Source: Coriobacteriales bacterium
GTDB lineage: Bacteria; Actinomycetota; Coriobacteriia; Coriobacteriales; UBA8131
NCBI GenBank assembly: GCA_031282405.1
Contig: JAITDU010000032.1
Coordinates: 11,154 to 75,153 of the forward strand
DNA length: 64,000 bases
Reading direction: 5' to 3'
This document shows, in pieces, positions 5,766 to 64,000 of the stretch (positions within the stretch are counted from its first letter, which is position 1; every line of letters starts with the position of its first letter). Made by a program: the position numbers and the translations under genes. The notes under the pieces are model-generated. The model was not told the origin of the DNA, ran no database searches, and worked only from the letters and a program-made list of their open reading frames with translations.

Positions 5766-8570
5766 TTATCTCCCAGGTGGTGTTTGTTCGATTTGATCTG
5801 TGTCGGCTGACGGCTGGCTGTGCGCCGCGCCTGTCTCCCTCTCGTTACCTGTTGCGTTAGCAGGCATTCTGTTGGGGGATTGCGCCGCAGCAATCGCAGG
5901 ACTCGGCTTATCTTTGAGGTCGATTTTTTGGTGTTTGACCAGGAAGTTATACAACGCGCTGATGGCAAAGCAGATAAGGCCGCCGCCGATGAACGACGCC
6001 ACGCGCATGACGGAATTGACCTCGCCAATGTCAAGTATCGTGAGTTTGAGTACGCAGATGACCAGGCCGATAAGCCCCACCAGCCTGAGCGAGCGCGCGC
6101 GCGCCCAAAAGCCGAGCGCAACAATCAGAAGCGCTGCGATCATACAGGCCAAACTGCTTACATAGGAAAGGTCCTGGGTGCCCACGAGACCATAGACCAG
6201 ACCCAGTACTACGAGGAATAGGGCCAGAGCGCTTATCGCTTCGCTGTCGCTGTTTGGTAGCGGCCGATCCTCGCGGCGGGCCAGGGCACTGGCGGCGGCC
6301 ACCTGGCGGATGCGTTCAATCATCAATGCCAGGCAAAACGCGGCCAAAAACACGTGCATTACCAGAGCAAGGGTGCCTTCGCGCTGGATAGCCAGCTCAA
6401 TGAAGGCCAAAAACATCAGCGCATATTCATTAATGCGATACGGTAGAGTTGGCCTGTCGCGTTTGGCAAAGTGAAAAGCTCCGGCGCAAAGAACGGAGAC
6501 GAGCAGTGCCGCCGCAAGCGTAAAGCCATACGGGACGTTGGGAAATGCCCAGACAAGCAGCGTCCCAGCCGTAAGCCCACCTCCTCCCGAGCCCTGGGCA
6601 TAAAGCGTCTGCAGGGCAATCACTATAAGCGACAGTTCAGCCAGGACCAGCACCACAAACCTGATAACAGGTACAAAACGCTGTCTGATTTTTGCGGTAA
6701 GTTGAACTGAGACGCATACAATTAAAGCTAATATAACAATAAGGTAGCTTATTGAGAAAAGCAGAGGAGAGAGCTTCTCTAAGGTGCCGTAGCCCCGTAC
6801 CAGCATGAAAATCGCATCTAATCCCAGGCCTGTCAGTGCCAGATAGCAGTAGAGGTCGTCTTTTGCTATTCTCCCCAAGACTCCGAGGAGTGCCGCCGGC
6901 ACAATCAAATAGAGCAGTCGTGTGTCATTGACGTATTGAGCCATCGTGAGGAAGCTATCGCTCGGTTCACCGAGGAATTGCCAGAGGCAGATCAGGGCAA
7001 GATAAGCTGCCAGTATGCCGACCAGGGCGCGCTCGACAACGCGGGGGTAGTCCAAGGTGTTGCGCAGGCGTGTCAATCCTATCATTACTGCTGCGACCAG
7101 TGCGAACACCACCAGTGCCGTCAGTTCGCGGGCGAGCAGAAGTTCACCCACAGAGCTTGGTTCTAACAACCAATAGACCAGCAGCAGGATATCGAGGTGC
7201 ACAGCCGCCAGCCACAGGACTGTTGTGGCGATGCTCAGCAATAATCGAGGCGTTGTGTTTTTAATGCGATTGCAAGAGACGAACAGCATCCAGGCCAAGG
7301 CGCTTGAACAGACGAACTGTATGAGCAAAAACGCCGTAGCGAAGCCCCAGGGTTCCAAGTATCCCAGTCCGGGGGTAGGCCACGAGACGCCGGGGGCGAC
7401 AAGCACAGAGGCGAACACCGCCAGTCCCAGGCTGGCAAACAGCCCAAAACGGTAGGTACGCTTATAGCAAAGGATGTTCCCGACAAGAATCACAGTTGCG
7501 CAGGCAAGTTGATAAACCAAAACGATTATGAGGGTGCTTTCGTCAAGGCCTTTGAGATAGAGGGCGCAGACAGAAATGAGCATGCCGGCGTGCATGATAA
7601 TAGACAGTAACAGCGATTGTGTTCGTTTGACCAACACGAATCCCAAGGCTATCCAGGCGAGCAGAGCTGCCATTGCCACAAGGTCGTCTATGGCTTTAAA
7701 CCAGAGGTTTGTGAGCAAAATGGAGATAAAAAACGCGCCGCAGCCGCAGCCGAGCAGCGCTTTTGTGAAGGGATTGGCGAAGGCGCGGTCCAGCAGTAGG
7801 CCACCGACGGTGAGCAGGGCGCTGAGCAGGAACATGGCGGCGATCTTCCAGCTGTCGCTTAAAGAGGGTACTACCAAAAAACCCAGGAATACCAGCCCTA
7901 AAAATACGAGCACAGAGGCTATGATTCCAATGACATTACGTCCAAACAAAGTTTCATATGAGGCGTGGGGCTTTGTGAATTTTGGCTTGCTTATCGGCCT
8001 GTTCAGATAGGATAGTACGGGGCGCTCAGACGGAATGGGGCTTGTGATTGGCGCTTGTGGCGTTAGTGTTACGGGTGCTCCTGTGGGTGGCGCAGGAGCA
8101 GAAGATGCAGAGGTGGTCGGAGCAGCTAAGGTCGAGGCTGCCGGAATCAGGGGCGCCTGCGCCGGTGGAGGTGTTGGTGTCAAGGGTGTGGCTTGCGCCG
8201 CTTGGGCCGAGGCAGTCCAGGTAGCCGCTGGCGCGGTTGGAATGGCAGAGGCAATTGGAGCTGCCGGAGCAGCTAAGGTCGAGGCTGCCGGAATCAGGGG
8301 CGCCTGCGCCGGTGGTGCGGATGGTACTCGAACGGCTGCTCGCGCTTGCGGTGCAACGGGGGCGGGTGTTTGTACGCGTGAGGCATCCGAGGAAGGGCTG
8401 GCGGTGGTGGTGGTGGTACTGTGCTCATGTTGGCGCCGCAATTCGGCCAATTCGCGACGCAGGCCTCTCAGCAGTATCAAGTTCACCACCGGGATGCCTA
8501 CTGCTGCTAAGCCGAGGACAATCAAGAAGATTACGAACAAGGTTGCGTTATACATCAGCGGGCCTTTCAC
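5766..8570 (-). CDS. DUF2339-like large polytopic membrane protein with a Pro/Ala/Thr-rich N-terminal linker
   Basis: 934-aa ORF. One N-terminal TM helix and a short charged helix (LRRELAELRRQHE) are followed by about 170 aa of P/A/T-rich sequence and then more than 20 hydrophobic segments. Start is GTG at 8570 (overlapping the upstream stop) or ATG at 8555. Confidence 0.7.
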   Translation of the reverse strand: MKGPLMYNATLFVIFLIVLGLAAVGIPVVNLILLRGLRRELAELRRQHEHSTTTTTASPSSDASRVQTPAPVAPQARAAVRVPSAPPAQAPLIPAASTLAAPAAPIASAIPTAPAATWTASAQAAQATPLTPTPPPAQAPLIPAASTLAAPTTSASSAPAPPTGAPVTLTPQAPITSPIPSERPVLSYLNRPISKPKFTKPHASYETLFGRNVIGIIASVLVFLGLVFLGFLVVPSLSDSWKIAAMFLLSALLTVGGLLLDRAFANPFTKALLGCGCGAFFISILLTNLWFKAIDDLVAMAALLAWIALGFVLVKRTQSLLLSIIMHAGMLISVCALYLKGLDESTLIIVLVYQLACATVILVGNILCYKRTYRFGLFASLGLAVFASVLVAPGVSWPTPGLGYLEPWGFATAFLLIQFVCSSALAWMLFVSCNRIKNTTPRLLLSIATTVLWLAAVHLDILLLVYWLLEPSSVGELLLARELTALVVFALVAAVMIGLTRLRNTLDYPRVVERALVGILAAYLALICLWQFLGEPSDSFLTMAQYVNDTRLLYLIVPAALLGVLGRIAKDDLYCYLALTGLGLDAIFMLVRGYGTLEKLSPLLFSISYLIVILALIVCVSVQLTAKIRQRFVPVIRFVVLVLAELSLIVIALQTLYAQGSGGGGLTAGTLLVWAFPNVPYGFTLAAALLVSVLCAGAFHFAKRDRPTLPYRINEYALMFLAFIELAIQREGTLALVMHVFLAAFCLALMIERIRQVAAASALARREDRPLPNSDSEAISALALFLVVLGLVYGLVGTQDLSYVSSLACMIAALLIVALGFWARARSLRLVGLIGLVICVLKLTILDIGEVNSVMRVASFIGGGLICFAISALYNFLVKHQKIDLKDKPSPAIAAAQSPNRMPANATGNERETGAAHSQPSADTDQIEQTPPGR
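8118..8315. repeat. Exact 51-bp direct repeat (8118-8168 and 8265-8315) inside the DUF2339 gene
   Basis: CGGAGCAGCTAAGGTCGAGGCTGCCGGAATCAGGGGCGCCTGCGCCGGTGG occurs twice, 147 bp apart. It encodes PPAQAPLIPAASTLAAP twice on the minus strand. Confidence 0.9.
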
Positions 8571-45280: not shown

Positions 45281-45357
<77 letters not shown>

Positions 45358-46595: not shown

Positions 46596-46671
46596 GGGCC
46601 GTTAGCTTAGTTGGTAGAGCAGGGGACTCTTAATCCCAAGGTCCGGGGTTCGAGTCCCCGACGGCCCACCA
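46596..46671 (+). tRNA. tRNA-Lys (anticodon CTT), CCA encoded
   Basis: Manual cloverleaf: acceptor GGGCCGT/ACGGCCC, D arm GCTT-AGTTGGTA-GAGC, anticodon loop CTCTTAA, T arm CGGGG-TTCGAGT-CCCCG, then A-CCA. TGGTATAAT (extended -10) lies at 46570-46578. Confidence 0.92.
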
Positions 46672-54265: not shown

Positions 54266-54340
54266 GGGCGTTTGGCGCAGCGGGAGCGCGCTTCCTTCAC
54301 ACGGAAGAGGTCACTGGTTCAATCCCAGTAACGCCCACCA
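54266..54340 (+). tRNA. tRNA-Val (anticodon CAC), CCA encoded
   Basis: Manual cloverleaf: acceptor GGGCGTT/AACGCCC, D stem GCGC/GCGC, anticodon stem CTTCC/GGAAG with loop TTCACAC, T arm ACTGG-TTCAATC-CCAGT, then A-CCA. Confidence 0.93.
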
Positions 54341-60632: not shown

Positions 60633-60707
60633 CGACTGAATCTGCCAAACGTGTGTACGCATCGTGTCAATGCGTATCCGACCAAGAAAGGCACTGTGAG
60701 GCTATCC

Positions 60708-61349
60708 ATGGGCAGCGAGAAGCAAATAGTATTCAACAGCAATGAAGACCGTTCCAAGGTGGTCGATCAGGCTTTGGCGGACCAAGGTGTTCTTTTAGCT
60801 CTGGTCGATAATCTTTCGGCCGACCAGCGACGCATCCGGCAATTCTCGGCAACAGCCATCAAAGAAATCTCTTCAAAGAGCCCCGAGGCGCTGGTAGCCC
60901 ACGTTGATTCCATTGCCGATGGTCTGCATCGCCCCGAGGCACAGACCCGATGGGAGTGTCTGGAGACCTTGTCGTTTCTTGCTCCTTTTAATCCGCCGTC
61001 TTTGGATGTTGCTGTGGAAGGTGCCGAGGAATCGCTCTTTGACGAGGATAACGGTCATGCTCGATTGGCGGCGTTGCGCTTTTTATGCGCCTATGGGGCT
61101 TTGGATTGTGAACGAGCTACCGAGGTCTGGCCGCTTATCGAAGAAGGTATCCAGTGTTATCATGGCGATCCGGAATTTGAGGAGATGTTAGCATCGGTCG
61201 AGTTCTTTGCTGCGGGCGATATCGGCTCTCCGGTACGTCAGCTCGTGGTAAAGCGCCTTCAATTTGATGCTGACAATTCCAAAGGCTCAATCGGTCGGCG
61301 CGCCAGCTCTATTGTCGCGCTCTGCAAAACCGGCCAAAAACACCACTAA
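60708..61349 (+). CDS. Hypothetical all-alpha protein (HEAT/armadillo-like repeats suspected)
   Basis: 213 aa from ATG 60708. Repeated helix-pair-like segments and no catalytic motif recognised. The ORF opens at 60651. Confidence 0.5.
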   Translation: MGSEKQIVFNSNEDRSKVVDQALADQGVLLALVDNLSADQRRIRQFSATAIKEISSKSPEALVAHVDSIADGLHRPEAQTRWECLETLSFLAPFNPPSLDVAVEGAEESLFDEDNGHARLAALRFLCAYGALDCERATEVWPLIEEGIQCYHGDPEFEEMLASVEFFAAGDIGSPVRQLVVKRLQFDADNSKGSIGRRASSIVALCKTGQKHH

Positions 61350-61371
61350 ACGTTGCTTCCTGGAATCTGAT

Positions 61372-62460
61372 ATGCCAAAACACACCGTAACACTGATACC
61401 CGGCGACGGTATCGGGCCAGAGATAACTGCTGTTATGTGCCGCGTAGTAGAAGCTGTCGGCGTAGACATTGCCTGGGAGTTGGCTTGGGCCGGCACCGAG
61501 ATGCTGGAGCAAACAGGCAGTCCGCTGCCTACAGAGACCATCGAGTCCATTCGCCGCACCAAGGTTGCCATCAAAGGCCCGATTACAACGCCTGTTGGCA
61601 GCGGATTCAGATCGGTCAATGTTGAGCTGCGCAAACAGTTGGATCTCTTTGTCAATCTGCGCCCGGTGCTTTCCCTCCCCGGCACCGGCGCGCGTTATGA
61701 TAACGTCGATATTGTTATCGTCCGCGAGAATACCGAGGACCTCTATGCCGGTGTTGAGTTTGAACAGGGTACATCGGCGGCCTTGGGCCTGATTGATTAC
61801 TGTGAGCGTGCCGGTGCCGGTCATATTCGCGCGGACTCGGGTCTGTCCATCAAACCCATCTCGATAAGCGGCTCTAAGCGTATCGTAGAGTGGGGTTTTG
61901 AATACGCGCTGGCCAACAAACGCAGCAAGCTCACGGCAATTCATAAGGCCAATATCCAAAAATTCTCCGATGGCCTGTTCCTCAAAGTCGCACGCGAGGT
62001 CGCTCAGGACTTTGAGGGGCGTATCGAGTTCGAGGATCGAATAGTCGACGCGGCCTGTATGGGACTGGTCATGCGCCCCCATGAGTTCGATGTCATGGTT
62101 TTGCCCAATCTTTATGGCGACATCGTAAGCGACCTATGCGCCGGTATGGTCGGCGGTCTCGGTCTGGCTCCTGGTGCCAACATCGGCACTGAATACGCGG
62201 TTTTTGAGCCGGTACATGGCTCTGCACCTAAATACGCCGGCAAGGACAAGGCCAACCCAACGGCCGAGTTGCTTACAGCCGTTTTGATGCTCAGGCATCT
62301 GGGAGAGAAGGACGCGGCTGACCGCATCATGACAGCTATCACCTCCGTTTTGGCCGAGGGGCGCTTCGTAACCTACGACATCAAGCGCTCGCTTACGGGT
62401 TCAACCGCAGGCAGTGTCGGGACTGTCGCATTCGCCGAGGCGCTCATAAACCGTTTGTGA
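61372..62460 (+). CDS. icd: Isocitrate dehydrogenase (NAD-dependent type; isocitrate/isopropylmalate dehydrogenase family)
   Basis: VTLIPGDGIGPEI start, SVNVELRKQLDLFVNLRP, IVRENTEDLYAG and NLYGDIVSDL motifs. The ORF opens at 61264; ATG 61372 gives a homolog-like N-terminus. Confidence 0.85.
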   Translation: MPKHTVTLIPGDGIGPEITAVMCRVVEAVGVDIAWELAWAGTEMLEQTGSPLPTETIESIRRTKVAIKGPITTPVGSGFRSVNVELRKQLDLFVNLRPVLSLPGTGARYDNVDIVIVRENTEDLYAGVEFEQGTSAALGLIDYCERAGAGHIRADSGLSIKPISISGSKRIVEWGFEYALANKRSKLTAIHKANIQKFSDGLFLKVAREVAQDFEGRIEFEDRIVDAACMGLVMRPHEFDVMVLPNLYGDIVSDLCAGMVGGLGLAPGANIGTEYAVFEPVHGSAPKYAGKDKANPTAELLTAVLMLRHLGEKDAADRIMTAITSVLAEGRFVTYDIKRSLTGSTAGSVGTVAFAEALINRL

Positions 62461-62534: not shown

Positions 62535-63368
62535 ATGATGCGATATGCTCATAATTCTTCGATGACGGAAGAAGTGCCCGCACGTGTGCGCGCGCCCGAT
62601 ACTGTCGAATGTGCAATGACACGCGTGCCCCAGGTAACAAAACCTGCGAGCACGCACAAGCCAGATGTGTTGCCCTTAAGCCAGGCGCTGCTGGAGCTAG
62701 TCTGGCCGACGCGCTGTGCCGGCTGCGAAGCGCCGGGCGAGCTGCTTTGCCCTGAGTGCCGTGACAGCCTGCTGCATATCGACCATACCACCGCCTGCCC
62801 ACGCTGCGGCGCTCCTTACGGCCGTACAATCTGTACCGAATGCTATGCTGCTTCCGGAAAGCAGCTGTTCAGCTTCAGCCAGGCAGTTTGTGCCCTGGAG
62901 ATGGAGGCAATATCCGGCAGAATGATTGTCTTATACAAGGATCGCAATGAGCGCCGTCTCGCCGATTATTATGCCAACTTATTATTTGCGGCGATTCCGG
63001 CAGTTTGGTTTACCTGGGCGGATTGCCTGAGTTGGATACCCTCTGATAAGCGCAGTGTCAGACGTCGTGGCTTTGATAGCATGCGGCCAATAGCGACTCG
63101 ACTGGCCGCATTGGGCAAGGTTCCTCCTGTCGCCTTATTGCGCAAGGCGATCGTATTGGACCAGCGTCGCTTGGACCGTGAGCAGCGTCGCCAGAATCTG
63201 ATCGGTAGTTTTGCTCTTACCGATGCTGCAATTCAGGATCGTTATTCTCGTATCCTGTTGATCGACGATGTCTTTACTACGGGGGCAACACTTGATAGCG
63301 CCGCTGCCGTGTTGCTTACACAAACGGCCATCGAGGTTAGGGTGGCGACGATTCTACGCGCCTGGTAG
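62535..63368 (+). CDS. comFC: ComF family protein (ComFC, phosphoribosyltransferase-like)
   Basis: N-terminal zinc-finger pattern CAGC...CPEC...CPRCG...CTEC and the C-terminal PRTase motif ILLIDDVFTTGATL. The exact start is uncertain. Confidence 0.85.
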   Translation: MMRYAHNSSMTEEVPARVRAPDTVECAMTRVPQVTKPASTHKPDVLPLSQALLELVWPTRCAGCEAPGELLCPECRDSLLHIDHTTACPRCGAPYGRTICTECYAASGKQLFSFSQAVCALEMEAISGRMIVLYKDRNERRLADYYANLLFAAIPAVWFTWADCLSWIPSDKRSVRRRGFDSMRPIATRLAALGKVPPVALLRKAIVLDQRRLDREQRRQNLIGSFALTDAAIQDRYSRILLIDDVFTTGATLDSAAAVLLTQTAIEVRVATILRAW

Positions 63369-63425
63369 GCCGCTTTCCTCGTGTTCTGTTAAAATTTATC
63401 AAGATCCCTCCGGGTCTGTGGTTGC

Positions 63426-63496
63426 GGACAGCGCCTCGTTATCAAACAGCAAAAGCCAGCTGTTAGGTAACGATATGTGATAACGAGGCGCTGTCC
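63426..63496. repeat. Long perfect hairpin (19-bp stem) 58 nt after the comFC stop
   Basis: GGACAGCGCCTCGTTATCA (63426-63444) pairs exactly with TGATAACGAGGCGCTGTCC (63478-63496). An inner stem AACAGC/GCTGTT lies within the 33-nt interior. Confidence 0.85.
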
Positions 63497-63745
63497 TAGT
63501 CCATGGTAGCCGCGGCCGAAAGGACCCACGTAAGCGAGTCTGGGAAACGAGGCTCGTGAGCATGGCGCGGCTTAGGGGTAAGACGTACCGTCCGGCCATC
63601 GAGGCAACCGTCTCCCGGGCGAGAGGACCAGTAGTGAGATAGTATCAAGCAAACGTCCCGGTATGCGGGTGTGGGGCCAAAGACCAGGTCAGCCGGAGGG
63701 ATTGTGAGATTGATGTGAAGCGCAACCCTGCATTAAAAACAACGT
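63497..63745 (+). ncRNA. Candidate structured non-coding RNA downstream of comFC (raiA-motif RNA is the leading hypothesis)
   Basis: About 250 nt with no plausible ORF and several GC-rich complementary segments (for example AGCCGCG...CGCGGCT and CGAG...CTCG). The location directly after comFC matches the published genomic context of the raiA motif. The consensus was not verified. Confidence 0.4.
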
Positions 63746-63762
63746 GATAAGGAGCGAGTCCG

Positions 63763-64000
63763 ATGAGCAGTAAAACAGGCATGTCCTGCCAGAATGCGAT
63801 GATTGCCGCTGCTGTAGACCACAGTATACGGTCCGAAGCCGCCGTTGTACCGACCACCGTCAAAACGCGCGCGTTGCGCTCGCGGACGGTGATCGTTGTC
63901 GCGGCTGTGGCACTGGTCATTTTTACGCTGACCTTGGCCGGCTGTGCGGGAGCAACCGGCTCCAAGGAGATTAAGCGCGATCCCGTGGTGACTTCGCCGG
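63763..64000 (+). CDS. Putative lipoprotein, N-terminal fragment (continues beyond the window)
   Basis: ATG 63763 is preceded by AAGGAG. The product MSSKTG...VIVVAAVALVIFTLTLAGCAG contains a lipobox (LAGC). The frame is open to the window end. Confidence 0.6.
   Translation, partial: MSSKTGMSCQNAMIAAAVDHSIRSEAAVVPTTVKTRALRSRTVIVVAAVALVIFTLTLAGCAGATGSKEIKRDPVVTSP

Follow-up and report, generated by a model that had tools for sequence, protein, structure and literature searches.

The gap between a comFC-like gene and a lipoprotein gene towards the end of the window (the whole 64,000-nt stretch of DNA analysed, from an uncultured Coriobacteriales bacterium) very probably holds a raiA-motif RNA gene (ModT, RF03072) at 63405-63701 on the + strand, which as a whole is the best explanation of the region. 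The Rfam model matches on the + strand only and along its full length (model positions 1-209 of 209, not truncated), at 154.7 bits (E = 1.2e-38), where the gathering score is 101.3. An earlier note on this DNA had named a raiA-motif RNA as a candidate, and the model bears it out. In a scan of the window against Rfam 15, raiA was the only match other than tRNAs, with one copy within the 64 kb; a permissive local scan of 63300-63850 (E <= 1) returned the same match. The note had also suggested comparing the spacer with the raiA model and all of Rfam: raiA is the sole meaningful match there. The permissive scan also gave a plant-miRNA hairpin match to the P2 arm (19 bits, E = 0.5, gathering score 149), which was rejected as chance. 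Over 701 nt the window shows no difference from L081, an independent Logan assembly of run SRR14710905, in which Rfam gives the same raiA match. This copy is an ordinary member of a known, curated family, detectable by a routine Rfam scan and in that respect already known; its sole distinctive trait is an extra-long (doubled) P2 arm. The features of the locus are as follows.

62535-63368, + strand: ComF-family (ComFC/GntX-like) gene directly upstream of the raiA RNA, stop codon TAG at 63366-63368
63387-63395, + strand: promoter-like motif of the extended -10 type, TGTTAAAAT, 9 nt upstream of the raiA start
63405-63701, + strand: raiA-motif (ModT) RNA, RF03072, 297 nt, subtype with P2 and P6-P7-P8
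63702-63762, + strand: unstructured spacer of 61 nt, with the SD sequence AAGGAG at 63749-63754
63763-64000, + strand: 5' end of a lipoprotein gene of solute-binding protein family 3, lipobox LAGC, Cys61 at 63943-63945

From the comFC stop at 63368 to the next SD-preceded ATG at 63763 there are 394 nt, crossed only by short, overlapping and unsupported ORFs of 46-106 aa, in agreement with the earlier description of about 390 nt lacking a credible ORF. The region had also been called highly structured, and rightly: 63405-63701 folds at -137.2 kcal/mol (z = -5.9), a value reached in none of 200 shuffles, and its G+C content is 60 %, that of the whole window 53 %. The flanks are different: structure in the 5' spacer (63369-63404) is no better than in shuffled sequence (z = +1.0), and in the 3' spacer (63702-63762, folded to 63780) it is at chance level (z = +0.8). 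The span originally flagged, 63497-63762, was wrong; it lacks the RNA's first 92 nt, where P1's 5' strand and the entire P2 lie, and adds the 61 nt of unstructured spacer, the structured element being 63405-63701.

The upstream protein, whose homologues carry the name ComF family protein, is 100 % identical to P0001 of a "Coriobacteriales bacterium" MAG. Its Pfam domains are DZR_2 and Pribosyltran, a double zinc ribbon plus a phosphoribosyltransferase domain; it matches NCBIfam TIGR00201 (comF) at E = 8e-19, under the model cutoff, and the comF/GntX models all stay below their trusted cutoffs. Where the gene starts is ambiguous: the public annotation begins at 62562 (268 aa) and the longest ORF at 62535 (277 aa).

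Helices, pseudoknots and covariation

The 2024 consensus and the 2026 cryo-EM structures (PMC12968392 for the latter) define helices P1-P8 and the pseudoknots PK1 and PK2. Helix assignments here were threaded on the cryo-EM-defined architecture, with the RNA numbered from 63405 = 1. Around P3/P4 the Rfam model, which follows the 2017 structure, pairs differently from the 2024/2026 architecture, and the latter was used for the pair counts. The parts of the RNA are as follows.

63405-63424, + strand: 5' strand of P1, pairing with 63683-63701
63405-63413 / 63693-63701: P1a, UCCCUCCGG with CCGGAGGGA, 9 bp, 8 of these pairs with compensatory changes
63414-63415 and 63687-63689: P1 bulges GU and GGU, invariant in 16/16
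63416-63418 / 63690-63692: P1b, CUG with CAG
63419-63422 / 63683-63686: P1c, UGGU with ACCA, followed by U19 and G20
63425-63497, + strand: P2, optional peripheral arm of 73 nt at the P1c/P3a junction
63499-63525, + strand: P3, kinked, made of P3a (GUCC/GGAC), an asymmetric AU//GAAA internal loop and P3b (GGU/GCC)
63509-63514 / 63566-63571: PK1, GCCGCG in the P3 apical loop with CGCGGC, 99 % paired, 2 compensatory pairs
63526-63530 / 63670-63674, + strand: P4, CCACG with UGUGG, paired in 16/16, invariant and free of covariation information
63534-63557, + strand: P5 hairpin, basal pairs covarying
63563-63564 / 63678-63679: PK2, UG with CA, invariant
63563-63581, + strand: PK-L linker region, comprising the 5' UG of PK2, the 3' strand of PK1 and the exposed linker
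63572-63581: exposed linker UUAGGGGUAA, 8 of 10 positions equal to UUAGA(C/A)GUAA
63584-63665, + strand: P6-P7-P8 three-way-junction domain
63675-63701, + strand: 3' part, with the 8-nt P4-P1c linker GGCCAAAG at 63675-63682 (3' side of PK2) and then the 3' strands of P1c, P1b and P1a

With ComFC as a guide, relatives were retrieved from 15 Coriobacteriia loci, whose raiA scores run from 138 to 167 bits, and aligned with the window to give 16 sequences under a cryo-EM-based structure of 60 pairs, pseudoknots included. Standard pairs occupy 97.2 % of the 951 cells and fall to 30-45 % once the 3' partners are slid by 1-3 columns. Both sides change in 23 pairs (102 cells), and not one of 500 column shuffles matches the observed pairing, covarying-pair count or covariation score. 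The compensatory changes sit in P1a, the base of P2, the base of P5, PK1, P6, P7 and P8; P3a, P4 and PK2 show no change, or changes on a single side, and so offer no covariation evidence. Judged by this alignment, the raiA helices are maintained by compensatory changes in the relatives. The earlier note had proposed a look at orthologous regions, and these turn out to be conserved and covarying across the 16 sequences by the pair counts just given. It appears very unlikely that the family assignment would fail against a larger orthologue alignment.

P1 is paired at 96-100 % over the 16 sequences, with compensatory changes in nine of its pairs. Its outermost segment has a distinctive composition in Coriobacteriia: the 5' strand of P1a is pyrimidine-rich and resembles an anti-SD sequence (UCCCUCC), and the 3' strand is purine-rich and SD-like (GGAGGGA, GAGGGG, GAAAGAG). 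The core (P3a-P3b, P4, PK1 and PK2) is paired in the window and 99-100 % paired over the 16 sequences, and the 3' side of PK2, within the 8-nt linker, fits the published G·A/G·A/C-G arrangement. In the exposed linker the Coriobacteriia relatives differ at the same two positions as the window, where they read GG, GU, AA or AG. P5 folds clearly as a hairpin in 10 of the 11 sequences that were folded singly, and weakly in L084. At their bases, P6, P7 and P8 are paired to 95-100 %, with compensatory changes. Family-wide, 68 % of raiA RNAs have this multi-stem domain, and its P8 frequently contains an E-loop. Here the 5' half of such a loop (AGUA) is present, but an E-loop in P8 is uncertain, because in the window's clade the 3' half reads CAAA instead of GAAA.

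The 73-nt P2 arm

P2 is optional in the family, being present in 42 % of members, and lies in the four-way junction of P1c, P2, P3a and P4. In published structures it is stacked on P1c and directed away from the core, and it is variable, with little conservation. In the window it consists of a perfect 19-bp stem (63426-44 / 63478-96) and an upper part with a 13-nt 3' bulge (63465-77), a 6-bp apical stem and an 8-nt loop (63451-58), with a folding energy of -43.4 kcal/mol (z = -8.5). In the Rfam alignment it shows up as 71 inserted nt following model position 22. A hairpin of 10-36 nt occupies the same position in 15/15 relatives, and its basal pairs covary. (The single-arm folds cover 11 sequences; the P2 lengths of the other five were read off the alignment.) In the six closest relatives, whose ComFC is 48-56 % identical, P2 measures 28-36 nt, and in the more distant ones about 10-28 nt; the window's P2 is twice the length of any in the 15 relatives and keeps the conserved closing positions C21/G22...C92/U93. 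Among species-representative genomes the best ComFC relatives reach no more than 42 % identity, and the protein database held no ComFC homologue between 56 % and 100 %, so that the databases searched contain no close relative of the window's organism.

Long P2 arms were also sought in metagenomes by a pattern search for the raiA P1c/P3a anchors spaced 45-75 nt apart, which returned 15 loci. Twelve of them belong to one other lineage (L091-L092, L094, L096-L104), and the two tested of these twelve are real raiA RNAs of 305-318 nt scoring 148-156 bits (L091, 2912-3216; L098, 730-1047). In this second, well-sampled lineage P2 equals the window's exactly in length, with 71 nt separating the anchors, and is unrelated to it in sequence; raiA there likewise lies downstream of a ComFC-like gene. 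Within its contigs an A-U / G-C / G·U series keeps one P2 pair. The remaining three loci (L090, L093, L095) gave no raiA match even at E <= 0.01 and were set aside as chance pattern matches. Because a second lineage carries an equally long and unrelated P2, the long P2 is, on these sequences, uncommon and not unique. In L009 (2984-3235, - strand) an extension of about 40 nt is found in P5 rather than in P2. Evidently, as far as the aligned sequences indicate, different peripheral arms lengthen in different Coriobacteriia lineages.

Two explanations would take the region, or its most unusual part, out of the family's normal variation. According to one of them the raiA resemblance is accidental and the spacer merely a G+C-rich 5' UTR of the lipoprotein gene. 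The position upstream of a gene is all that speaks for it, and we give it next to no chance: a match at E = 1e-38 across the full model, together with the conservation and covariation in 15 orthologues, refutes the annotation as a mere 5' UTR on comparative sequence grounds. The other concerns the long P2 (63425-63497), which might be no functional part of the RNA at all, having arisen as a recent insertion of a palindromic or mobile repeat or as an assembly artefact. The perfect 19-bp inverted repeat without a single mismatch, a length twice that in any of the 15 relatives and a G+C content of 51 % (62 % in the rest of the RNA) are what such an origin could leave behind. Yet the arm sits exactly at the relatives' P2 site with the closing positions kept; a search of the 64-kb window for further copies of its arms (<= 3 mismatches) returned P2's own two arms only, which gives no sign of a repeat family; and two assemblies agree base for base. 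An unrelated lineage, moreover, carries a P2 of the same length with its pairing maintained in RNAs of 305-318 nt above the Rfam threshold, and published structures show P2 as peripheral and variable. An insertion or artefact is therefore very improbable. We favour an authentic P2: the 73-nt arm would have been lengthened in this lineage, as a peripheral arm out of contact with the core, and this copy illustrates how far P2 can grow without touching that core.

Putative promoter and gene neighbourhood

Aligning the flanks on the first raiA nucleotide uncovered the promoter motif; between distant loci the flanks are otherwise unalignable. A TGnTAnnnT sequence ends 4-10 nt upstream of raiA in 16/16 Coriobacteriia loci (the window, L001, L003-L006, L008-L010, L037, L082-L084, L086, L088 and L089), against a background of 113 occurrences per 128,000 positions, which corresponds to a chance of about 0.006 per locus. 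A scan of 63200-64000 for sigma-70 -35/-10 promoters found nothing, because no -35 is present. The conservation of the extended -10 motif in all 16 loci leads us to infer a dedicated promoter for the raiA RNA, with a start at about 63401-63404, which agrees with the sigma-A promoters and independent transcripts published for clostridial orthologues. The same motif occurs elsewhere in the window: TGGTATAAT at 46570-78 lies just upstream of a tRNA gene (at 46596), and TGCTAATAT at 62520-28 lies upstream of comFC, where it would leave the 62535 start nearly leaderless. An extended -10 without a -35 looks like a general promoter form of the source organism, to go by these motifs. The window has three tRNA genes on the + strand (45281-45354, 46596-46668 and 54266-54337).

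Downstream of the RNA, the start codon of the solute-binding protein (SBP) gene follows the raiA 3' end after 61 nt in the window and after 23-61 nt in most relatives, the shortest spacers being 23-26 nt (L088, 1151-1174; L082, 2994-3020). An intrinsic-terminator scan of 63200-64000 found none, and the + strand has no TGnTAnnnT between 63702 and 63762. With neither a terminator nor a -10 motif in the spacer, read-through from raiA into the SBP gene is plausible, probably for some transcripts. The six closest relatives have a U-rich run directly after the 3' strand of P1a (UUUAUU, UUUUAAAA, UUUGGUUUU); P1 and this U-tract may act as a leaky terminator.

The lipoprotein gene is cut by the end of the window and complete in the L081 contig (3386-4438), where it encodes 350 aa with Pfam SBP_bac_3 (E = 1e-16) and is followed by a second SBP_bac_3 gene. 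It heads a polar amino-acid ABC-transporter cluster; in closer relatives it continues with a second SBP, a permease and an ABC ATPase. In each of the 15 other loci the gene that follows raiA on its strand is a homologue of the lipoprotein gene (E = 1e-26 to 1e-160), so that a same-strand SBP_bac_3 gene follows raiA in 16/16 Coriobacteriia loci. These include four Slackia/Eggerthella-like loci (L003, L004, L009, L010) where raiA is upstream of comFC in divergent orientation and the SBP lipoprotein gene is still next; since the SBP gene follows even there, raiA is linked more tightly to it than to comFC in this class. In the window the comFC stop is 36 nt upstream of the raiA start; in L006 raiA lies 1.5 kb downstream of comFC. 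The original 2017 description listed RaiA and periplasmic binding proteins as frequent downstream domains (PMC5737381), and the 2024 survey reported ABC transporters as a downstream association and comFC upstream in 74 % of genomes. Coriobacteriia are a raiA-rich class. The earlier note was right that the downstream gene is a lipoprotein gene and not hpf; its further view that this makes the context atypical does not hold. As the SBP association is both published and present in all 16 loci, the context is, by this comparison, canonical for Coriobacteriia. A long-form HPF gene (Ribosomal_S30AE plus a C-terminal domain) stands directly after the lipoprotein gene in L005 and L001; in the 64-kb window no hpf was found, a tblastn search with the L005 HPF giving nothing better than E = 3. 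Immediately upstream of comFC (60651-62460) come a hypothetical protein of about 210-230 aa and then an isocitrate/isopropylmalate dehydrogenase gene, a conserved block that the closer relatives share and that is preceded there by a tRNA and a leucyl-tRNA-synthetase-like gene. L002 carries an L31-Coriobacteria ribosomal-protein leader (RF03128, 46 bits; 6748-6779, - strand) unrelated to raiA.

The tight linkage to one gene family raises the question of whether the RNA acts on its neighbour. A purely cis-regulatory role is the main rival to a trans-acting RNA, and the SBP linkage lends it some support: in Coriobacteriia raiA would then act mainly in cis, as a riboswitch-like 5' leader co-transcribed with the SBP/amino-acid ABC-transporter operon and controlling it. 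The same-strand SBP_bac_3 gene in all 16 loci, the four with divergent comFC among them, fits this, as do the usual distance of 23-61 nt, the window's 61-nt spacer devoid of a terminator and a -10 motif, and the 23-26-nt spacers in L088 and L082, which leave no room for a separate promoter; Rfam, too, types RF03072 as "Cis-reg; riboswitch". However, nothing in the locus looks like an expression platform, the spacer being unstructured (z = +0.8) and free of a terminator, and an extended fold keeps P1 closed and does not stably sequester the SD. Deletion phenotypes in Clostridium acetobutylicum and C. difficile are rescued in trans, and a cis role is ruled out by the authors of that work; in vitro, no ligand was seen to bind (PMC5737381); and the same RNA precedes unrelated genes in other lineages. 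We accordingly give a mainly cis-acting raiA very little credence. It is likewise unlikely, though with a chance that is not negligible, that the Coriobacteriia raiA RNA is made as the 5' part of the polar amino-acid ABC-transporter mRNA, as a particle released from the transcript or influencing it. That idea arises because the SBP gene follows on the same strand in 16/16 loci, usually after 23-61 nt, with no promoter or terminator between; if true, it would connect raiA function with amino-acid or nutrient uptake during the growth transition, and the 73-nt P2 specific to this lineage could serve as an additional docking arm.

Expected function and comparison with known raiA RNAs

A trans-acting RNA remains our preferred reading. 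In Clostridia, trans action, high abundance and binding to KhpA/B have been reported (PMC10861870, PMC11706538, PMC12968392). Deletion of raiA there delays entry into stationary phase, causes sporulation and aggregation defects and alters c-di-GMP, all rescued in trans, and the affinity of the RNA for KhpA-KhpB is low-micromolar, perhaps through the exposed linker (PMC10861870, PMC11706538, PMC12968392). By analogy with these orthologues, the RNA at 63405-63701 (+) would be transcribed from the extended -10 promoter TGTTAAAAT, starting a few nt before P1, with some transcripts reading through into the solute-binding-protein gene; it would fold into a compact, very stable and highly abundant particle, bind the KhpA-KhpB KH-domain heterodimer and act in trans on the transition to stationary phase. 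Transcript ends, abundance and trans action are thus extrapolated from Clostridia for the present copy. Coriobacteriia do not sporulate, so the clostridial sporulation phenotypes are not literally transferable.

The raiA family is among the most widespread structured RNAs of bacteria, and the window's copy adds little to the question of its biochemical activity. What the analysis does provide is a settled annotation: the spacer carries a raiA/ModT RNA gene, its coordinates are corrected, and the flag of an atypical context is removed. The copy also adds a Coriobacteriales lineage that is not represented among the species-representative genomes searched, and it makes a clean comparative case, combining a conserved extended -10 promoter with an obligatory linkage to the SBP gene, which might help in choosing organisms for transcript mapping.

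Compared with the raiA motif RNA / ModT family as described (RF03072; Weinberg 2017; Soares 2024; Lence 2024), the window's RNA agrees in its full-model match above the gathering score, in having all named helices and both pseudoknots, in comFC upstream and a binding-protein/ABC gene downstream, and in its host, a member of the Actinomycetota (Coriobacteriia), which together with Bacillota are the phyla of the family. It differs in length, 297 nt where about 200-250 nt is typical, the cause being the 73-nt P2; in its linker, UUAGGGGUAA where UUAGA(C/A)GUAA is published; and in its next gene, which is not hpf/raiA, hpf being absent from the 64-kb window. Ca-raiA of C. acetobutylicum and the ModT of C. 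difficile share the core and P1; each is directly preceded by a sigma-A-type promoter of its own, and in C. acetobutylicum the gene after the RNA is likewise not raiA (it is gntR). The clostridial RNAs, by contrast, lack P2, and C. difficile ModT possesses an intrinsic terminator as well as a long read-through isoform, unlike the window's locus, where no terminator was found. A further counterpart is Ns-raiA from Nocardioides sp. Iso805N, known from cryo-EM (PMC12968392): it belongs to the same subtype, with P2 and P8 and the four-way junction J1 of P1c, P2, P3a and P4, its numbering is identical over the first 21 nt (G10, U11, G14, U19, G20, C21), and it shares the P3 internal loop A-U//(G)AAA and an 8-nt P4-P1c linker forming PK2. 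The two differ in P2, about 39 nt there and 73 nt here, and in the sequences of P5, P7 and P8, as expected of peripheral arms.
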